From the IMG/VR virus record IMGVR_UViG_2724679058_000007: a stretch of 35,236 nucleotides of DNA. One strand, given 5' to 3'. Under the pieces are notes generated by a model, which saw only the letters and a list, made by a program, of their open reading frames with translations, was not told where the DNA came from and did no database searches. The position numbers and the translations under genes were made by a program. The DNA is from a virus. Its lineage: Duplodnaviria > Heunggongvirae > Uroviricota > Caudoviricetes. Below, piece after piece: positions 162-27,910 of this stretch (positions are counted from its first letter, which is position 1; each line of letters begins with the position of its first letter).

Positions 162-742
162 TTACAATCCTACCGCGTCACCCTTTCTCTGACCATCTAC
201 CGGAAAATACCGGTACAACGTCGATAACCCCACTCCATAGATAATGGCCAACTGCTGACGGGTATGCCCCTTAACCAATAGCCGTGCAATCTGCTCCCGC
301 TCATGCGGCTTTAATGCGTTGGGCCTTCCACCTGTGCGTCCCTGTGCTCTGGCAGCTGCAATCCGGCAAGTGTGCGTTCAACGATCAGCTCACGTTCCAT
401 CTCCGCCAGCGCCGACATCACATGGAAAAAGAAGCGTCCCATAGCAGTGCTGGTATCAATACTGTCTGTTAAAGAGCGGAAGTGGGCACCGCGTTCATGT
501 AACTCTGATATCAATGCGATCAGGTTCTTAACGCTGCGCCCCAGCCTGTCCAGTTTCCACACGACCAGGGTGTCTCCGCTATTAACGCACTTTAAAGCAC
601 GTTTCAGACCGGGACGGCTGGCAACTTTTCCGCTCATACGGTCTTCAAAAATGCGGTCACAGTTTGCGCTTGTGAGTGCATTACGTTGTAAATCGCTGTT
701 CTGGTCGATTGTTGATACGCGGATATAACCAATGACGGCCAT
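162..742 (-). pseudogene. gin: Gin/Hin-family serine DNA invertase, reading frame interrupted by a 1-nt deletion near 350-362
   Basis: From ATG at 740-742 the product reads MAVIGYIRVSTIDQNSDLQRNALTSANCDRIFEDRMSGK...SLTDSIDTSTAMGRFFFHVMSALAEMERELIVERTLAGL, a serine-recombinase catalytic domain. It then runs into a stop at 311, while a shifted frame continues AAARAQGRTGGRPNALKPHEREQIARLLVKGHTRQQLAIIYGVGLSTLYRYF to a stop at 162-164 (HTH domain). Confidence 0.8.
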
Positions 743-805
743 CAATTCTCCTCCTCTATGTTGCGGTGGGAGGATTTTCACAGATTTCGCTACGTGCAAC
801 TGCTT

Positions 806-830
806 TTCCAAAAACCTTGGTTTGGGAGAA
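806..830 (+). repeat. hix/gix-like invertase crossover site (left)
   Basis: TTCCAAAAACCTTGGTTTGGGAGAA; its 19-bp core CAAAAACCTTGGTTTGGGA (809-827) recurs as a perfect inverted copy at 3004-3022. Resembles Hin/Gin sites as I recall them (AAACCAAGGTTTTTGA). Confidence 0.8.
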
Positions 831-1304
831 GGCTCTGCATTGCCTGTTGGTGTGCCTGTTCCGTGGCCTTCAGCCACTCCGCCAACAGGCTGGCTGAAAT
901 GCAATGGTGCGGCTTTTTCTGCTGAAGAATACCCGGAACTGGCAAAGGCTTACCCGACAAATAAATTGCCTGATTTACGCGGTGAATTTATTCGCGGCTG
1001 GGATGACGGGCGCGGGGTTGATGTTGGGCGTGCTTTATTGAGCCTTCAGGCTGGGATGCTGGAAAAGCACCGTCATATTGTTGTTGCCAATGATGGTTAC
1101 GACACAAAAGATGAATGGGAACTGGCTACGATTTTCAAAAAGACATACACACAAGGACGGGGACTTGATGCCACAAATACAGGAGGGAGTCTGATCCCAT
1201 CACCGACACTTCATTCACGAGGGAGTATCGGTAATACTGGCGGGAGTGAAACCCGTCCACGAAATATTGCATTTAACTTTATCGTGAGGCTGCATAATGG
1301 ATAA
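809..1304 (+). CDS. Alternative tail-fibre C-terminal variable region (Sv'-like), promoterless in this orientation
   Basis: ORF 732..1304 contains FSKNLGLGEGSALPVG, matching PALFVKNLGLG in the expressed fibre gene on the other strand. Only the part distal to the crossover site would be fused to the constant region after inversion. Confidence 0.6.
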
Positions 1305-1899
1305 CGCCGTATTAAATAGCGAGCTTATTGCCACGAAGGCGGGGAATATTACCGTCTATAACTATGATGGTGAAACTCGGGAATATATTTCCACTTCAAA
1401 TGAATATCTTGCCATTGGTGTCGGTATCCCTGCATATTCCTGTTTAGATGCCCCTGGCACACATAAGGCGGGTTATGCTATCTGCCGTTCGATGGATTTA
1501 AACTCATGGGAATATGTGCCAGACCATCGCGGTGAAGTTGTCTATAACACCGAAACGGGAGAATCAAAAGAAATCACAGCTCCGGGTGATTACCCTGAAA
1601 ATACAACCACTATCACCCCTTTATCTCCATACGATAAATGGGATGGTGATAAATGGGTGACCGATACTGAGGCACAGCATAGCGCCGCAGTAGACGCGGC
1701 AGAAGCACAGCGTCAGTCACTGATTGATGCTGCAATGGCTTCCATCGGTCTGATTCAGCTGAAATTACAGGCCGGACGGAAGCTGATGCAGGCAGAAACA
1801 ACCCGGCTTAACGCTGTGCTGGATTACATTGACGCGGTGACGGCAACAGATACCAGCACCGCGCCGGATGTCATCTGGCCTGAACTGCCGGAGGCGTAG
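1297..1899 (+). CDS. Tail fibre assembly protein (U'-like, partner of the alternative fibre tip)
   Basis: 200 aa; C-terminal WVTDTEAQHSAAVDAAEAQRQSLIDAA...LNAVLDYIDAVTATDTSTAPDVIWPELP is the typical Tfa chaperone motif; start overlaps the Sv' stop. Confidence 0.75.
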   Translation: MDNAVLNSELIATKAGNITVYNYDGETREYISTSNEYLAIGVGIPAYSCLDAPGTHKAGYAICRSMDLNSWEYVPDHRGEVVYNTETGESKEITAPGDYPENTTTITPLSPYDKWDGDKWVTDTEAQHSAAVDAAEAQRQSLIDAAMASIGLIQLKLQAGRKLMQAETTRLNAVLDYIDAVTATDTSTAPDVIWPELPEA

Positions 1900-2314
1900 G
1901 CCATTCAATATCTGGCGCACCGGAAGTATCGACCATTTCCAGTGCGTCCAGGTAATCCAGCCACGCGTTATACTGTACCTTTTCGGCGTCTTTCAGCCGT
2001 CCCATTGCAGCTTTTCCCGGCCATTGCTTGCTGTTCATGTACTCGTTAGCCTGGTCGATTAGCAGTTGTTTTTGTGCTTCAGTTGCTGCAACAAGTTCAT
2101 CGTGCGTTGGCGGCGGAATATCACCCCAGGCAGGAAAACCATCTTCACCAGCAATGCGGATTTTCCCTTTCGGTGGTTCGCCTGAATACTCAATAAACAG
2201 TTCTTCATCAACCTCCTTAGCATTGTCAAAATTCATTCCATTTGATTCATAAATTTCCTTCATAGCTATCGGATAGAAAGCATTTGTAGATACATCATAA
2301 AAATATTTATTCAT
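1871..2314 (-). CDS. Tail fibre assembly protein (U-like)
   Basis: Start taken at MNKYFYD; C-terminal ATEAQKQLLIDQANEYM...YNAWLDYLDALEMVDTSGAPDIEWPTPP Tfa motif; AT-rich; immediately downstream of the tail-fibre gene. Confidence 0.75.
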   Translation of the reverse strand: MNKYFYDVSTNAFYPIAMKEIYESNGMNFDNAKEVDEELFIEYSGEPPKGKIRIAGEDGFPAWGDIPPPTHDELVAATEAQKQLLIDQANEYMNSKQWPGKAAMGRLKDAEKVQYNAWLDYLDALEMVDTSGAPDIEWPTPPAVQAR

Positions 2315-2319
2315 TCTAA

Positions 2320-3501
2320 TTATCTCCCGATTGCAATCCATCGAGCGTAAATAAAGGCTGGTGATGATGTTGAATTTAATAATTTGAACTGAGTATTGCT
2401 GATAGGTTGAGCTGCAAAGCTATATACAGCTGAAGCGCCAGCGTTATCATAAGAAGCAACAAGCTGAACTGTACTGTAATTTGTAAAAGGTACGGGGAAA
2501 TTTATAGTCTGCGGATCTCCAATTTGACCAGAGGCTGCAATACCCCACTGGATAATAGTACCTCCTGGTAAAGATGCCCAGCCGGTACCGCTTGTAAAAC
2601 TTGACATATCCGGTATTTGTCCAGAACCTGTACCCACATTTTTTGTTGCCGCCGTTCCAAGCCCGGAAATATCAGATGATGTTGGTTTAAATCCTGTGTG
2701 GTACAACTTATACCAGTCAGAAAATGCAGTATCACTCGCTTTTATCCTCACACTAAAGTCAGGAATGGAACCGAGAGACGCACCGCAGATTTGCCACCCG
2801 GTTGAACCTGAGTTAGCAAATGAAATACCACCAGCCCACTGCCCAGGATAAGGACCGATATTATCTGCAGGGGCAAAATAATCAAAGCGACTGACGTCCA
2901 ACGTCGCCATAGTTCCGCTTACCTGGGCTGCCTTTATTCCAAGCCCCCACCCGCCATTTAAAGCAATTTTACCCGTTTTATCTGTGAAGGATGATTGCAG
3001 TGTTCCCAAACCAAGGTTTTTGACAAACAGCGCCGGGTCAGGAATATCAGCGCCGTTCTGGTCTTTGGCCAGCTTCTCCGCCAGCTTGTTCAACACAGTG
3101 GTCGCAAAATTCGGATCGTTGCCGAGGGCATCAGCCAGCTCTTTGAGCGTATCCAGCGTCTCAGGGGCGCTGCCTGCAAGCGCCGCAAGTGCTTTGGCCA
3201 CAAACTCCGTCGTCGCCAGCTTCTTGCTGTTATCGCTATTTGCAGGCGTAGGCGCTGTTGGTGTGCCGGTGAATGTCGGGCTGGCTTTCGGTGCGTACTG
3301 GGTATGCGGGTCTGCTGCCGCGATATGTTTCGCAAGGTCAGAACCGCCATTTTCAACCTGTTGCTTCAGGTACAGCGTGCGGCTGGCCAGTTGTTTACCC
3401 TGACGGTTAGAAATTCCGTCAGGCCCGCCCAGAACGGGGTCAGAGACCTCAATCTGGTAGATGCCCTCTTCCCACTGCGGGGTTTCAGGTAGGTTTGCCA
3501 T
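2320..3501 (-). CDS. Tail fibre protein (constant N-terminal part plus currently expressed variable C-terminal part)
   Basis: 393 aa, MANLPETPQWEEGIYQIEVSDPVLGGPDGISNRQGKQLASRTLYLKQQ; the hix-like site falls at about codon 160; the C-terminal two thirds are AT-rich and Gly/Ser-rich. Confidence 0.85.
   Translation of the reverse strand: MANLPETPQWEEGIYQIEVSDPVLGGPDGISNRQGKQLASRTLYLKQQVENGGSDLAKHIAAADPHTQYAPKASPTFTGTPTAPTPANSDNSKKLATTEFVAKALAALAGSAPETLDTLKELADALGNDPNFATTVLNKLAEKLAKDQNGADIPDPALFVKNLGLGTLQSSFTDKTGKIALNGGWGLGIKAAQVSGTMATLDVSRFDYFAPADNIGPYPGQWAGGISFANSGSTGWQICGASLGSIPDFSVRIKASDTAFSDWYKLYHTGFKPTSSDISGLGTAATKNVGTGSGQIPDMSSFTSGTGWASLPGGTIIQWGIAASGQIGDPQTINFPVPFTNYSTVQLVASYDNAGASAVYSFAAQPISNTQFKLLNSTSSPAFIYARWIAIGR
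3001..3025 (-). repeat. hix/gix-like invertase crossover site (right), inside the tail-fibre gene at the constant/variable junction
   Basis: Plus strand TGTTCCCAAACCAAGGTTTTTGACA; inverted copy of the 806-830 site. It encodes the shared KNLGLG motif in both tail-fibre variants. A compositional break (GC-rich constant part versus AT-rich variable part) coincides with it. Confidence 0.8.
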
Positions 3502-4081: not shown

Positions 4082-5177
4082 CGGACACCCCGGTCATGTT
4101 AAGAGTGATCGCCGTGCAGTTTGCCCATTCGTTTTCTGCCACCACCCGCAGTGGCGGTGTCACCAGTTCAACCTGGTACACCCCGGAGACGGACAACACA
4201 CTGATAATCTGGCTGGGAACAATATCGCGCCCCAGCGTGGCGGTACGTGATGCCACCCAGTTCTGTATGGCGCTGTTGGCGTTGTCCTTTACCGAGTTGG
4301 CATCCTGGTCGCGGTAGATCGTGATATTGGCTTCAATGGTGTAATCCACCTGCAGAGGTGTTTTAGCCCGCACGGTATCAGTAAGTGGCCTGACTTTTTC
4401 GTCAGAACAGAAACTCTCTACCAGCGTGAGGATGCTGTCGTCCGGCAGGCCGGTACTGAGCAGCGGATACAGCTCTACGGTACCGGGGACCGGGGAAAGC
4501 ACGGCAACATCGACAATGTTGGGATGGGCCTGCATGGCATGAAAGCGGTATGCCATACGGCTTCCGGCGTTGGTGAATGACTCCGGGGCCAGTTTGATAC
4601 GCTCGCGGAGCCTGTCATTGTCTTCCTGCTCAGAACCGCCAGAACTGGCCGCCATATTGGTCACCTGCAGGTCGACGTTATCAATCTCATCGAGCAACTG
4701 ACTGACCTGCGCAGGCTGCCAGCCGTTGCCTGCGGCTCCCGGCTCGGTACAGGTGGCCGTGGCATTGACAAGCAGCAATCCGGCTTTCAGCACTACGTCC
4801 GTATCGGTTGCAAAAATAATGCTGTCGGAAGCGCTGACGCGGGTACCTGCCGGAATCAGCACATCAATGGCCAGTTCCTCATCCACGGAGAACTGGAGCG
4901 TGGTGGTGGCAGGCTGCGCGGCCAGTCGGTATACACCAACCAGTTCACCGAGGTAATCAATCATCGGCTCACGGGCAAAGGCGACCAGATTCTGTTTGGC
5001 CGCTTCCTGCGCCGCCACCCTGACCAGCATTTCGCGGTATGCCCACAGGTCAATCAACAGGCGCTCAGCCTGAGCGGGGTATAGCGTCTTGCCAGTTGCG
5101 GCTTCGTACTGTGCAATCATTTCAGCCGTGATTTTGTCAGCATCACGTTCAATAAAATCGGGTTCTGTCAGCGCCAT
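4074..5177 (-). CDS. Baseplate J-like protein (Mu gp47 / P2 gpJ family)
   Basis: 367 aa; position between gpW-like and gpI-like genes; overlaps both neighbours. Confidence 0.75.
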   Translation of the reverse strand: MALTEPDFIERDADKITAEMIAQYEAATGKTLYPAQAERLLIDLWAYREMLVRVAAQEAAKQNLVAFAREPMIDYLGELVGVYRLAAQPATTTLQFSVDEELAIDVLIPAGTRVSASDSIIFATDTDVVLKAGLLLVNATATCTEPGAAGNGWQPAQVSQLLDEIDNVDLQVTNMAASSGGSEQEDNDRLRERIKLAPESFTNAGSRMAYRFHAMQAHPNIVDVAVLSPVPGTVELYPLLSTGLPDDSILTLVESFCSDEKVRPLTDTVRAKTPLQVDYTIEANITIYRDQDANSVKDNANSAIQNWVASRTATLGRDIVPSQIISVLSVSGVYQVELVTPPLRVVAENEWANCTAITLNMTGVSDG

Positions 5178-5515
5178 AGCAACTCCTGAGTCCGGGGTTG
5201 TCCGTCAGAGCCTTTCCAGCTCACCCGGAGCGTAAGATGTTCGCCGTCGACGGCGGGTTTAACCGACATAAGCTGGCAGCGAGGCTCCCAGCGGCGAATG
5301 GCATCGACGGATTCGCGCACCACATGCGGAATAGCCCGGTCAATAGGCCAGTCGATATAAAGGTGCAGATTGCTGCCGAACTCCGGGCGATGCGGGTCGC
5401 TGCCGCGAGGAGTACGCAGGATGATTTGAATGGCCTGCCAGATATCATCCAGCCCCCGGACGATTTCGCCAGGGGCCTGCAGAGCCGGTTGCCAGAATAC
5501 TGAGGTTGTTTTCAT
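5168..5515 (-). CDS. Baseplate wedge protein, GPW/gp25 family (Mu gp46-like)
   Basis: 115 aa; size and synteny; MKTTSVFWQPALQAPGEIVRGLDDIWQAIQIILRTPRGSDPHRPEFGSNLHLY. Confidence 0.7.
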   Translation of the reverse strand: MKTTSVFWQPALQAPGEIVRGLDDIWQAIQIILRTPRGSDPHRPEFGSNLHLYIDWPIDRAIPHVVRESVDAIRRWEPRCQLMSVKPAVDGEHLTLRVSWKGSDGQPRTQELLWR

Positions 5516-5569
5516 GGGGGCAGTATTGCCCCTGTGCGGGAACGCCGATATTAAAGGCGTTTAAGAAGG

Positions 5570-6082
5570 TCAGTGGGAATGGTGATTAGAGTTCGGGCCG
5601 TCAGAGAGCATGCTGCCTGTCGAGTGGGCATTGCCGTTGATTTCAAGGTTGCCGTTCACCGTGGTGGTGTCAGCGGTCAAATCAATGGTTTTCCCCTTCA
5701 GGCTGATACCCACTGCAACCTCGATCACCACATGCTCGATACCACCTTTGACTGTCAGCGTATGGGTCGCACGGTTATAGCTGAACTCTGCGCCATCCGC
5801 GTATTTCGTGCCCCGGACATTTTTGTCGCTGAACGGCGGTTTATCGACTTCTGAGTACACCGCGCCCAGAATGACACCATCCTCGCCGTTGGCATCGAGC
5901 AGCACCTCAACCTGCTCCCCCACGTCAGGGAGCCAGTAATCCTTGTTATCCTGGGTATTGCGCTGCAGCACGTTAAGCCAGTTAGTGCGCAGGTTATCGC
6001 ATTCCGGCAGACGAACGCGGGCCTGAACCTTGTCGGCATCGACGGCGCTGACCGTACCGACCTGACGGGTGACGCCTGTCAT
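5570..6082 (-). CDS. Baseplate assembly protein V-like spike (Mu gp45-like)
   Basis: 170 aa; synteny downstream of the D-like hub gene. Confidence 0.7.
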   Translation of the reverse strand: MTGVTRQVGTVSAVDADKVQARVRLPECDNLRTNWLNVLQRNTQDNKDYWLPDVGEQVEVLLDANGEDGVILGAVYSEVDKPPFSDKNVRGTKYADGAEFSYNRATHTLTVKGGIEHVVIEVAVGISLKGKTIDLTADTTTVNGNLEINGNAHSTGSMLSDGPNSNHHSH

Positions 6083-24614: not shown

Positions 24615-24745
24615 GGGTGTCTCCTTGTTGTGTGGGAGACAGCATCACAAATGTGGCGGGATACGGATTTTAAAGCGCGTTATAAGTGTTCGCAGAGGGA
24701 AGCGGCCAGAATGGTGGCACACAAAACACAGGGGAGGCAAGCACG

Positions 24746-25069
24746 ATGACTGAACCGAAACAGACCGGTCTTAAAAAAGGGTTCCTCTTTGGGATCAGAA
24801 CCGGAGAGCAGAATAAAACTTACACGCTAAGCGTGGATGCCAGTTGCCCAACCGAGGCGATTGCAGAACTGAGAAACGCGCTGACGGCGCTTGAAACGCG
24901 AAGCAGCCATTTCGCCAGCGGAGAAAACAACGTCATGATGATTGGCAATGTGGCGGCGACATCACGATATAAAGCCGTACCTAATCCTACTACTCAGTTA
25001 TCCGGCGACCAACGAAGACTGGAAGCGGAATCAGCAGTTCCCAGAACGGTTCTTCCTCACCAGTCTTAA
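24746..25069 (+). CDS. Hypothetical protein (108 aa)
   Basis: ATG preceded by GGGGAGG; MTEPKQTGLKKGFLFGIRTGEQNKTYTLSVDASCPTEAIAELRNALTALE...; its 3' end overlaps the convergent ORF 24990..25556. Confidence 0.4.
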   Translation: MTEPKQTGLKKGFLFGIRTGEQNKTYTLSVDASCPTEAIAELRNALTALETRSSHFASGENNVMMIGNVAATSRYKAVPNPTTQLSGDQRRLEAESAVPRTVLPHQS

Positions 25070-25556
25070 CCGGGGCCGCTTCTCCCGCCCAGTAAAGCCA
25101 GGCCCGGTGATATAATTCCAGCACCGGGCAATCACTGTTCAATAACCTCATATCTCCGCGATGCACCGGCTCATCTGTGATTACTTCATATATCGGTGCC
25201 GTTCTGATTTCGTCTTCGCCTCTCTCATCGGCCAGTAATGCCCGGAACTTCCTGACTTCACTCAGATGCTGACAGGCAAACAGTGACTGATAGCGGGAAG
25301 GTTTGTCAGGAAAATGGCTACGGCGAACTAACTCAAACACCAGACCGACCAGCAGACTTCTGCTGACTCCACTGTCATCTTCCATTTTAGGGCCGGGGTT
25401 ATAGAGATAGTTATGACCGTGCTTGGAAAGACCATCGGGATACATCTGATGAAGGAAAGCGGCCAGCTCCGGCGCTTCAGGTTCGTATTTTCCGGTAATT
25501 ACATGGCAAGGCGAAGGCAGACGATTAGCGGAATCAAGTGTGTAATACGTTCCCAT
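24990..25556 (-). CDS. Hypothetical protein (188 aa), accessory locus
   Basis: ORF MGTYYTLDSANRLPSPCHVITGKYEPEAPELAAFLHQMYPDGLSKHGHNYLYNPGPKMEDDSG...; no family recognised. Confidence 0.5.
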   Translation of the reverse strand: MGTYYTLDSANRLPSPCHVITGKYEPEAPELAAFLHQMYPDGLSKHGHNYLYNPGPKMEDDSGVSRSLLVGLVFELVRRSHFPDKPSRYQSLFACQHLSEVRKFRALLADERGEDEIRTAPIYEVITDEPVHRGDMRLLNSDCPVLELYHRAWLYWAGEAAPVKTGEEEPFWELLIPLPVFVGRRITE

Positions 25557-25664
25557 TCAGAAAACAATCCTTATCGAACAAACACTGCACGTAGGTAACA
25601 CATCCAGTAAATCGCGTTAATAGAAAACAGTTATCCATAAGCCTCATCCTGACAATGAAAGAAC

Positions 25665-25696
25665 GACCAGCCCGGTGCGGTAACACCAGGCTGGTC
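25665..25696. repeat. 13-bp inverted repeat with 6-bp spacer upstream of the methyltransferase gene
   Basis: GACCAGCCCGGTG cggtaa CACCAGGCTGGTC (one mismatch); additional perfect palindrome GTCTCGCGAGAC at 25741-25752; GACCAG occurs three times in the spacer. Confidence 0.5.
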
Positions 25697-25799
25697 ATCA
25701 ACCCACAGGTATGCACTGTGAGCCGACCAGGGTTCAGTCAGTCTCGCGAGACCAGACTAGCCTGCCATATTTTCACTGATTGCAAAAGGCTTACGGATA

Positions 25800-26570
25800 A
25801 TGAAAGAACAATCTTTACCCATCGTTCCATGGATTGGCGGCAAACGTCGTCTGGCTAAGCATATTCTGCCGCTGTTCCCGGCCCATACCTGCTATGTGGA
25901 GCCGTTCTGTGGGGCCGCTGCGCTCTATTTTCTTAAGACACCCAGCAAGACCGAAGTCATTAACGATATCAACGGGGAACTGGTGAACCTCTATCGGGTG
26001 GTCAAGCATCATCTGGAAGAATTTGTTCGCCAGTTCAAATGGGCGCTGGTCAGCCGTCAGATTTACAAATGGTTGCAGGATACGCCGGAAGAAACTCTCA
26101 CCGACATTCAGCGGGCGGCCCGGTTCTACTACCTGCAGAAACAGGCGTTTGGCGGCAAGGTGGCCGATCACTCGTTCGGAACCTCCACCACAAGTGCGCC
26201 GCGCTTTAACCTCCTGCGCATCGAAGAAGAACTGTCGATGGCACACCTGCGCCTGTCGAGAACGCTGATAGAGCATCTGGACTGGCACCAGTGCATAGAG
26301 CGATATGATCGCCCGCATACGCTGTTCTACTGTGACCCACCATACTGGGGAACAGAGGGCTATGGTGTGGAGTTCGGGCTGGAAAACTATGATCACATGG
26401 CAGATTTAGCGCGAAGGATCAAAGGGAAGATGATTATATCAGTGAACGATATCCCGGAAATGCGGCAGGTATTCAACGGTCTGAACATGCAGTCGGTTGA
26501 TATCAGCTACAACCTTAAGGTAACAGGTAAACCCAGCCCGAAGAAAGAGCTGGTAATTTGTAATTTTTGA
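25800..26570 (+). CDS. dam: DNA adenine (N6) methyltransferase, Dam family, orphan
   Basis: 256 aa; N-terminal PIVPWIGGKRRLAKHILPLFP, AdoMet motif EPFCGAAALYF and catalytic DPPY (FYCDPPYWG); no adjacent restriction enzyme recognised. Confidence 0.8.
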   Translation: MKEQSLPIVPWIGGKRRLAKHILPLFPAHTCYVEPFCGAAALYFLKTPSKTEVINDINGELVNLYRVVKHHLEEFVRQFKWALVSRQIYKWLQDTPEETLTDIQRAARFYYLQKQAFGGKVADHSFGTSTTSAPRFNLLRIEEELSMAHLRLSRTLIEHLDWHQCIERYDRPHTLFYCDPPYWGTEGYGVEFGLENYDHMADLARRIKGKMIISVNDIPEMRQVFNGLNMQSVDISYNLKVTGKPSPKKELVICNF

Positions 26571-26617: not shown

Positions 26618-27151
26618 TTAATCCTGCCTTGGACAAGTCCAATAATCATTATCTGGCTCTGGTGAATAAGCTTTCAAACAACCTGCTCGCGGGGTCTTAC
26701 CATCATCTGTCATAGGAACTTTTTCCTTATCAAGTTTCACGGTCAGGTCTCCACCAGGAACATCCGTTTTATCGAAAAAAACAGCCTGACATGCTGATTT
26801 AGATATTTTCACTTCGTGGGCATTATTTGATATGAACAAATAACAATTATGACCAGAGGCTATGTAGTCACTTGGAATATTATTTTCGTCTTTAATATGA
26901 AACTGCACCGTTGTCACCGGGCGTTCGCTATCCTCGGATACTTCGACTTTTTCAAAACTGTCCGCGTACTTATCCAGGCCGGGGAGTTGTTGGCGAATAA
27001 ACGGTAATTCGCGATTTACAACCGGATTATCTGTTTCAACGCTAAAAACCGCGTGCTCCTTAGCTGTGGTGGACGTATCAGCAGGATCGGTATTATCTCC
27101 ACACCCAGATAAAACAAATATCAACGGTAAAAATAATTTGCGCATAGTCAT
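26618..27151 (-). CDS. Lipoprotein of unknown function, AT-rich moron immediately downstream of the repressor gene
   Basis: MTMRKLFLPLIFVLSGCGDNT: signal peptide with lipobox LSGC; gene visibly more AT-rich than the phage backbone; same strand as the repressor with a 35-nt gap. Confidence 0.7.
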   Translation of the reverse strand: MTMRKLFLPLIFVLSGCGDNTDPADTSTTAKEHAVFSVETDNPVVNRELPFIRQQLPGLDKYADSFEKVEVSEDSERPVTTVQFHIKDENNIPSDYIASGHNCYLFISNNAHEVKISKSACQAVFFDKTDVPGGDLTVKLDKEKVPMTDDGKTPRAGCLKAYSPEPDNDYWTCPRQD

Positions 27152-27186: not shown

Positions 27187-27597
27187 TTAACCCGTATTTT
27201 TTAATCTTTCGAACGCTGCGGACAGCTCCTTAAGCTGTTTTTCCATATCAATCATTCGCTGTTTTTCCTCAGCGCCTCGCAGCAACTCTTTTCGCACCTC
27301 TGGCTCCAGTTGGTTGAGCAGCTCCAATAACTTCAGATCAGACTGGTTGAAATGCTGCTCCTGATTAGCTGGCTGTGCTTTCTCTACCCCAACAGCTTCC
27401 CCTTTACCAGTAAGTAGCCAATCTATTGATATGTTCAAATGGGTGCTTAGCGCAACAAGAGCCTCTGCATTAGGTTCTCTCTCTCCACGCAGATAGTTTT
27501 GAAGTGAGCGATATGGAATTTTTGACAAGTCTGACAATGCCTTAATTGTCAGACCCTTAGCATCCATCGCTTCGCGCAATCTCTCTTTTATACTCAT
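27187..27597 (-). CDS. Phage repressor, XRE-family HTH (c-like)
   Basis: Start taken at MSIKERLREAMDAKGLTIKALSDLSKIPYRSLQNYLRGEREPNAEALVALSTHLNISIDWLL (HTH_XRE pattern); divergent from the Ner-like gene. Confidence 0.75.
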   Translation of the reverse strand: MSIKERLREAMDAKGLTIKALSDLSKIPYRSLQNYLRGEREPNAEALVALSTHLNISIDWLLTGKGEAVGVEKAQPANQEQHFNQSDLKLLELLNQLEPEVRKELLRGAEEKQRMIDMEKQLKELSAAFERLKNTG

Positions 27598-27685
27598 TTG
27601 AACATATCTCAATTTGACATACCCGTTTGGGTGCGTACAATAGACCCAATAGAGTACATCATAACCCAACAGGAACACGGTGCAT
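27598..27685. promoter_or_regulatory. Divergent repressor/early promoter and operator region
   Basis: Plus-strand TTGACA (27614-27619), 16 nt, TACAAT (27636-27641) aimed at the early operon; direct repeats CAATAGA at 27638-27644 and 27647-27653 overlap the -10 region. Confidence 0.55.
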
Positions 27686-27910
27686 ATGAACAAACAACAA
27701 GTTCGGGCACGGCTGGTTGAAAGAGGCAGTAGCTTGCGCCAGTTCGCGCTTAACGCGGGCTATGAGCCACGAACAGTCACCCAGGCTGTCAGCCGCTGGG
27801 CAGGCAAAAGCGAACTTCCACGCGGTCGTTTGACTTATCGGATTTTGCGAGACCTTTCGGTCGCAATAGGCAAAGAAGTTACCCCCGGCATCCTCAAGGA
27901 GGCGTCATGA
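27686..27910 (+). CDS. ner: Ner-like DNA-binding protein
   Basis: MNKQQVRARLVERGSSLRQFALNAGYEPRTVTQAVSRWAGKSELPRGRLTYRILRDLSVAIGKEV; small HTH protein, first gene of the early operon. Confidence 0.7.
   Translation: MNKQQVRARLVERGSSLRQFALNAGYEPRTVTQAVSRWAGKSELPRGRLTYRILRDLSVAIGKEVTPGILKEAS

Follow-up and report, generated by a model that had tools for sequence, protein, structure and literature searches.

A convergent gene pair with a DUF2441 protein as a mobile accessory cassette of temperate phages

In DarTG, the DNA ADP-ribosyltransferase (ART) toxin DarT is encoded in an operon with its macrodomain antitoxin DarG; the RES-Xre type II toxin-antitoxin (TA) systems include ParST, MbcTA and NatRT; and in CmdTAC three genes provide an mRNA ADP-ribosyltransferase toxin, an antitoxin and a SecB-like chaperone, a prophage-carried ART effector thus being used for abortive infection. 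We describe here two open reading frames (ORFs) from a 35,236-nucleotide stretch of viral DNA (Caudoviricetes; IMG/VR record IMGVR_UViG_2724679058_000007), which at its full length is called the window below. The two, a small plus-strand gene and a minus-strand gene for a 188-residue protein of the DUF2441 family, form one mobile accessory cassette of temperate phages (24689–25649). By analogy the cassette resembles DarTG, RES-Xre and CmdTAC, in that a putative effector of ART fold would travel as phage cargo together with a partner of its own.

Because its partner and its gene order are different and no model is hit, the cassette nonetheless falls outside every named system. It has no sequence homology to DarTG, whose PADLOC models it leaves unmatched, and where DarTG is an operon with a macrodomain, the phage genes are convergent and the partner is a 77-residue protein of predicted β-β-α-β-β topology. 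Relative to RES-Xre, the larger phage protein is DUF2441 by Pfam and not RES, the partner has no helix-turn-helix (HTH) and no Xre or COG5642 similarity, and the layout is again convergent. The pair has two genes rather than the three of CmdTAC, which we take to be the system listed in PADLOC as PD-T4-9 (its presence in the copy used was unchecked); PADLOC gave no hit. BC2332 of Bacillus cereus (Protein Data Bank entry 2AUA), a structural-genomics protein for which a small convergent partner is not reported, belongs to the same family at 22% identity. As for the site of insertion, the defence hotspots of P2-like phages and P4 satellites are alike in having a fixed position in a temperate backbone, swappable cassettes and an empty-site allele, and unlike in that the backbone here is BcepMu-like and transposable and the occupants are uncharacterised, none of them matching a known defence model above noise.

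A convergent pair carried as one unit

The small gene runs on the plus strand from a conserved ATG at 24746 to a stop codon ending at 25069 (the ORF table lists 24686–25069), and the larger gene occupies 24990–25556 on the minus strand. According to the same table their 3' ends, tail-to-tail, share the 80 nucleotides (nt) from 24990 to 25069, in agreement with the overlap of about 80 nt given in a preliminary description of this DNA. That description assigned 108 amino acids to the plus-strand ORF, which is indeed present but encodes 107 residues, 108 being the number of codons with the stop included; it was also right to credit this ORF with a good ribosome-binding site (RBS), as a plus-strand GGAGG at 24733–24737, read from the sequence, stands 8 nt before the ATG.

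DUF2441 loci were taken from genomes, viral contigs and exact-protein look-ups, both genes were then located in each, and homologues were compared at the protein and DNA level. The pair is convergent in all of the approximately 40 loci, and wherever the DUF2441 protein is at least 58% identical to that of the window, the small gene lies directly downstream on the other strand, with the exception of two loci that have suffered an insertion sequence (IS). In Pantoea stewartii (L023, 4669–7340) an IS66-family element sits inside the small gene and DUF2441 is intact; in Erwinia tracheiphila (L020, ~4464–5672) an IS sits in the 3' end of DUF2441 and the small gene is intact. The tail-to-tail order is kept in every lineage, with a junction that varies from a 20-nt gap to a 107-nt overlap: the genes overlap by 80–89 nt in the window type, by 77 nt in the Arsenophonus / Symbiopectobacterium / Pantoea type and by 107 nt in L032, and are separated by 4 nt in Pseudomonas, 8 nt in L033 and 20 nt in the L021 type. 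In a clade whose DUF2441 proteins are 38% identical to that of the window (L044–L050) there is a convergent gene of 66 residues (phrog_10826), overlapping by 11 nt, and hhalign relates its product to the small protein (66%, E = 5.5e-5), probably as a distant homologue. A 70-residue convergent ORF beside a DUF2441 clade of 36–38% identity (L015/L052) was considered as a further homologue and rejected, being unlike the small protein by eye, negative in tblastn and inconsistent in placement; a scan of viral contigs with an alignment of small proteins returned nothing beyond the loci already found.

The pair resides in four backbones. It lies between the holin gene and dam in BcepMu-like prophages of Enterobacterales, just after mor in Mu-like prophages of Arsenophonus, beside cI/cro in lambdoid prophages of Pseudomonas, and next to the holin gene, in opposite orientation, in enterobacterial lambdoid contigs. 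Its limits are given by E. coli FAM21845 (L090), in which holin and dam have nothing between them; its match to the window breaks off at 24688 and is taken up again at 25650. The empty site defines a cargo unit of 961 bp (24689–25649) that holds exactly the two genes together with their upstream regions, and the unit stands out in GC content as well, with 50.4% where the window as a whole has 55.6% and the lysis genes next to it 60.8%. Across lineages the identities of the two proteins are correlated with r = 0.70, one lineage being strongly discordant. The corresponding 0.97-kb unit of Pseudomonas is likewise GC-poor relative to its flanks. In one such lambdoid prophage (L005) a 67-nt direct repeat (4879–4945 and 5848–5914; 85% identical, 969-nt spacing) exactly brackets the cassette and may be a scar left by recombination or insertion, or else a regulatory element present twice; flanking repeats like these are present neither in the window nor in the Arsenophonus locus.

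The linkage of the two genes is not obligate, and the site between holin and dam is polymorphic. Accessory cargo had been suggested to accumulate at this position, and relatives of the window bear this out, with the site empty in a related E. coli prophage and filled by other gene pairs elsewhere. In L086 (4001–5184) a 232-residue protein, which has about 55 residues in common with the small protein, comprising its N-terminal hairpin and helix, faces a 162-residue phrog_1244 protein with an overlap of 4 nt; the latter was tried as a cryptic DUF2441 and dismissed (hhalign probability 0.1%). In E. coli ZH063 (L089, 2119–3456) a 247-residue phrog_3787-like protein faces a 134-residue one with an overlap of 25 nt, and a 71-residue gene is present at the site as well; judging from one inspected genome, this arrangement may account for many of the approximately 140 E. 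coli genomes that match the flanks only. Other relatives have at the same site proteins of 230 and 349 residues in which the small domain is C-terminal and no convergent partner follows, and L013 has an 83-residue chimeric small protein facing a lipoprotein-like gene. In view of these alternative partners and fusions, the small-protein family is modular and not tied to DUF2441 alone. DUF2441 for its part has more distant members that lie beside integrase, repressor or RelBE genes (Gordonia phages Yeezy and JuJu, Streptococcus Javan prophages) or, in one Enterobacter prophage, between terminase and lysis genes. On one viral contig (L060, 3992–5280) an AbiV gene (HEPN_AbiV, E = 1.6e-37) begins 9 nt after a distant DUF2441 gene (27% identity) on the same strand, and the two may form a DUF2441-AbiV operon; in Pseudomonas an AbiC/AbiP-like gene is found 1.2 kb from the pair.

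The two genes and their products

Since the window has many long antisense ORFs, the length of an ORF is little proof of coding here. By Nei-Gojobori estimates among lineages 65–88% identical in DNA, the ratio of nonsynonymous to synonymous rates (dN/dS) is 0.06–0.31 for the 188-residue gene and 0.09–0.5 for the core of the small gene (residues 1–76; 24746–24973, plus strand), in which the proportions of synonymous and nonsynonymous differences (pS and pN) are 0.6–0.8 and 0.20–0.26. In a six-frame test of this core the annotated frame alone is free of stops, across lineages 65–70% identical in DNA, and has a pN/pS of 0.27–0.50. The other five frames all have stops; pN/pS is 0.7–1.9 in four of them and 0.3–0.8 in the exact antisense frame, the only one to match the low values of the annotated frame, with which it has its wobble positions in common, but it too contains stops. 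These patterns of substitution indicate that both ORFs, and not just one of them, are real genes under purifying selection.

The C-terminal tail of the small ORF (residues 77–107 and stop; 24974–25069, plus strand) gives another picture. Its dN/dS is about 0.8–3, close relatives have nearly no synonymous change in it, and in the alignment of homologues, where residues 1–76 are conserved, it is variable or missing, being absent from the Pseudomonas, L021 and L033 types. This is the pattern expected if the sole constraint on the tail is the C-terminus of the 188-residue protein on the opposite strand. The notion that the overlap is a functional part of the small protein was rejected on these grounds (dN/dS near or above 1, absence from lineages) and on the low predicted local distance difference test (pLDDT) scores of the tail; by the same comparisons the 80-nt overlap is a lineage-specific read-through and no selected part of the small protein. 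It could still be argued that one of the ORFs does not code and only shadows the other, or that the small-ORF DNA serves only as an RNA or promoter element, given that the small ORF is left out of the Klebsiella phage KP12 record discussed below and of most RefSeq annotations and that its 3' tail is without protein-level constraint. However, the overlap amounts to only 80 of 324 nt, the low pN relative to pS is that of the non-overlapping core, the RBS is strong, the modelled fold is compact, and no Rfam family reaches threshold in the small-gene region. The shadow ORF was rejected, as the six-frame pN/pS values and stop counts single out the annotated frame, and we regard any explanation of this kind as very improbable.

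The 188-residue protein (24990–25556, minus strand) is a member of the DUF2441 or BC2332-like family with an ADP-ribosyltransferase-type fold. It matches Pfam DUF2441 (PF10386) over residues 71–158 with 29.1 bits, the curated gathering cut-off being 25 (E = 1.1e-6), is named DUF2441 domain-containing protein in RefSeq, and matches phrog_5663, a PHROG without assigned function. Its AlphaFold model (pLDDT 89.7) has the same fold as the solved BC2332 and includes the split β-sheet of ARTs, and the structural neighbours closest after BC2332 are intracellular ARTs of TA or defence type. DUF2441 sits in the ART clan of Pfam (PMC7955679), SCOP places 'BC2332-like' within the ADP-ribosylation superfamily (PMC3000352), and in a template search a site in BC2332 matched the active site of diphtheria toxin (PMC3024214). 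In an alignment of 17 very diverse DUF2441 members, including Gordonia and Streptococcus phage proteins, S44, E75, R88, F93, L139, Y155, W156 and E173 are invariant and D8, R78 and D135 nearly so; E173 lies in the WExLIPLP strand, and R88 followed by E173 is the order expected for the Arg and the catalytic Glu of an ART. The invariant polar residues suggest that DUF2441 proteins are enzymes, and the phage gene product is putatively cytoplasmic, with no obvious signal peptide, translocation domain or receptor-binding domain in its 188 residues by eye, no predictor having been run. The literature searched contained no published function for any DUF2441 member.

The small protein constitutes a previously undescribed family, without a match to Pfam, PHROG, NCBIfam or PADLOC models or to any solved structure. 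It was therefore apt to say, as the preliminary description did, that neither ORF is a recognisable phage core protein, the larger one being DUF2441/phrog_5663 and the smaller lacking a family match; nor do profile searches make either of them an ordinary structural or replication protein. The 28 clusters of homologues found in a collection of 5.8 billion proteins have a lowest identity of 59%, with members of 77–107 residues from Arsenophonus, Symbiopectobacterium and Pseudomonas at 59–66%, and the family is small, since an exhaustive profile search yielded only 18 clusters at the 50% level. Its core of about 77 residues is predicted to be β-β-α-β-β, a hairpin, helix and hairpin modelled with pLDDT of 82–95 over residues 11–70 and about 50 in the tail. 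The small protein evolves faster than DUF2441 (82% versus 94% identity between close alleles; 31% versus 63% for the L021 type, whose partner is still a clear homologue by hhalign, with 98% probability). Over its first ~30 codons the small gene is 98.7% identical in nucleotides to L013, where the downstream cargo is different, and 83% identical to L086, which points to a recombination joint inside the gene. The small domain is a shuffled module, of which a fusion gene directly downstream of mor (P0054 / L088, 584–1153) is further evidence: there the domain precedes a C-terminal segment that resembles the one in replication initiator O (phrog_678, E = 1.4e-26).

Proposed function and its alternatives

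We propose that the pair is a lysogen-expressed effector that uses NAD, together with its cognate regulator, and that its phenotype is exclusion, abortive infection or addiction, a reading to which we would assign a probability of roughly 40%. The DUF2441 protein would be the effector, either ADP-ribosylating a target with NAD+ or degrading NAD+, and the small protein, made from a promoter of its own, would be the cognate regulator, most likely a neutralising or trigger-sensing partner. As the stop codons are 4–20 nt apart or overlapping and there are no convincing terminators, the transcripts should be antisense to one another at their 3' ends; each would then extend into the other gene, allowing reciprocal control at the level of transcription or RNA and a coupling of expression. 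In the lysogen the pair might be a toxin/antidote-like module that excludes other phages or aborts their infections. A lysogen-expressed accessory role fits the polymorphism of the site, the presence of DUF2441 relatives in lysogeny or integrase regions beside RelBE-type genes, the AbiV and AbiC/AbiP-like neighbours and the faster evolution of the small protein. With regard to termination, a scan of the pair gave weak terminator-like hairpins only. One of these, with a 5-bp stem and a T-rich tail on the DUF2441 strand (24823–24835, minus strand), lies inside the small gene and is kept in the window, Pseudomonas and Arsenophonus types; it is broken in four other types, which makes a terminator function doubtful, and a conserved terminator inside the small gene was rejected for this inconsistency.

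Several observations weigh against the proposed effector and regulator. The small domain occurs without DUF2441 at the very same site, and many of the more distant DUF2441 genes are without a small gene. A canonical H-Y-E or R-S-E motif order cannot be assigned with confidence in DUF2441, the middle motif remaining unplaced from the alignment alone, and the glutamate of the IYEV strand in the phage clade, Glu124, has no conserved counterpart in BC2332. Neither protein has a match among the PADLOC, NCBIfam and Pfam models for defence or TA systems (in PADLOC-DB v2.0.0, zero families for either at E ≤ 1), and the partner is not homologous to a known antitoxin of the macrodomain, Xre-HTH or MbcA/ParS kind. 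The convergent layout is atypical of type II TA operons, none of the approximately 40 loci being co-directional, and a consensus scan found no sigma-70 promoter-like site for either gene. Finally, the Pantoea stewartii locus, with its IS66-disrupted small gene and intact DUF2441, is unexpected if DUF2441 is lethal when it is not neutralised.

What, then, of other functions for the pair? DUF2441 is co-directional with the lysis and late genes and lies just upstream of them, as it might if it were an ART made in lytic growth to modify a host defence protein or the host machinery, in the manner of T4 Alt/ModA/ModB or of AcrIF11, with the small protein serving as its cofactor, conferring specificity on it or being a neighbour unrelated to it. 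We consider such a role in counter-defence or host take-over unlikely, as the cassette occurs in either orientation relative to the lysis genes (compare L044 with the window) and the pair or DUF2441 is found in the lysogeny/immunity region of Pseudomonas, Gordonia and Streptococcus phages. The cassette also lacks an aca-type HTH regulator gene, and there is no sequence homology to Alt, Mod or AcrIF11, the ADP-ribosylating anti-CRISPR, with which only 69 residues align; DUF2441 hosts, moreover, extend well beyond the carriers of type I-F CRISPR. An ART fold might equally call to mind a secreted or injected virulence factor of lysogenic conversion, as many classical ART exotoxins are phage-encoded. 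The family, however, has its members in Actinobacteria of the soil, in symbionts of insects and in Pseudomonas prophages rather than in pathogens, its closest structural neighbours besides BC2332 are intracellular, and the protein has no obvious means of export or entry, so that, despite the speculation that BC2332 might be a toxin (PMC3024214), an exotoxin seems highly improbable.

It may also be asked whether the two genes belong together at all. The small-domain gene could be a resident of the hotspot that is shuffled on its own, possibly with a regulatory role in view of its position, divergent from the late promoter or next after mor, and DUF2441 a separate piece of cargo that landed beside it. 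The recombination joint seen with L013 and L086, the small domain fused to other domains or facing other partners at the same site, and the only moderate correlation of the two identities with its one discordant lineage are all in keeping with such independent hitch-hiking. That the same tail-to-tail pair recurs in four unrelated backbones, at different sites and in either orientation relative to its neighbours, that its 0.96 kb come and go as a single unit, and that a probable distant homologue of the small protein accompanies DUF2441 at only 38% identity argue the other way, and we think this explanation improbable. To return to the proposed effector and its regulator, it is tempting to speculate more broadly that BcepMu-like phages have, between lysis operon and dam/repressor, an unrecognised hotspot of interchangeable, convergent and end-overlapping two-gene cassettes, and that the pair is a new phage-borne immune or counter-immune system, in which a modular partner family is combined with different effectors by fusion or pairing and convergent transcription governs expression; this we offer as a tentative and rather doubtful extension.

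Setting in the phage and implications

Its gene content, together with the RefSeq label 'BcepMu gp16 family' on a neighbouring early gene of a close relative, identifies the window as a transposable prophage of the BcepMu-like kind, whose early and late arms diverge. Late genes make up the minus-strand left arm, in the order holin, SLT endolysin, terminase, Mu gp29-like portal, head and tail; after these come a tail-fibre segment, in which two assembly genes oppose each other, and the gene for a Gin-like serine recombinase. The plus-strand right arm is early and has Ner-like and MuB-like genes, a DDE transposase, DUF3164, GemA and Mor, and a CI-type repressor is encoded at 27187–27693 on the minus strand. 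The pair is flanked on the left by the Holin_2-3 gene (start 24614, minus strand) and on the right by a D12-class Dam methylase (25800–26570, plus strand). With late genes leading leftward from the holin and early genes rightward, the site does stand at the early/late divergence point where it had been placed.

On the left, the region upstream of holin (24615–24688) is backbone, conserved with an empty site or with other cargo, and from its position only is presumed to be the late (Mor-dependent) promoter. On the right, the segment upstream of dam (25650–25799), with a hairpin of 17-bp stem at 25662–25699, is conserved in flank-only genomes: approximately 140 E. coli genomes match the locus partially, most of them, probably over a hundred, in this segment alone as judged from those sampled. 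The non-coding stretch, about 145 nt long, is 84–99% conserved in the sampled genomes whatever the cargo, and it persists in SF-088, which lacks dam. Rfam gave no family above threshold for it, and the stretch probably belongs to the phage backbone or has a regulatory role.

Prophages in about 20 complete E. coli genomes are 96–100% identical to the window across the locus region, and the record 'Klebsiella phage KP12 clone KP12_2, partial sequence' (OM835952.1) is 99.9% identical over the 1.5-kb region compared. That record is filed under Vequintavirinae, yet its annotated genes are Mu-like and E. coli chromosomes carry the region compared with 100% identity; the sequence seems to stem from a prophage that was induced and co-purified, and not from KP12 itself. 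At the far left of the window (311–3501), the Gin-like recombinase (311–904, minus strand) adjoins the tail-fibre segment, which has a Collar-domain ORF and the opposed assembly genes (732–1304 and 1297–1899 on the plus strand, 1871–2341 on the minus strand), and the whole looks like an invertible host-range switch of the Mu G-segment type. The last base of the window, 35236, is the end of the Mor stop codon. Adjoining the repressor, a minus-strand gene at 26618–27151 encodes a 177-residue protein with a lipoprotein-like N-terminus. Its internal and C-terminal motifs, IP.DY..G.NC and PRAGCL....P......W.CP, recur in the 258-residue gene opposite the small-gene chimera of L013, and the region may have here a further gene for an accessory or exclusion function.

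The structure of a DUF2441 protein has been solved since 2005, and one clade of the family is now seen to be part of a mobile phage cassette with a novel small partner. Since natural empty and alternative alleles of the cargo site exist, in E. coli strains that have been sequenced, the function of the cassette is directly testable. Should the exclusion reading be false, the cassette would still be a clean example of a cargo gene pair. Were an NAD-dependent exclusion module to prove true, it would represent a new ART-based system with an unusual convergent architecture, and its site a defence hotspot in transposable phages.

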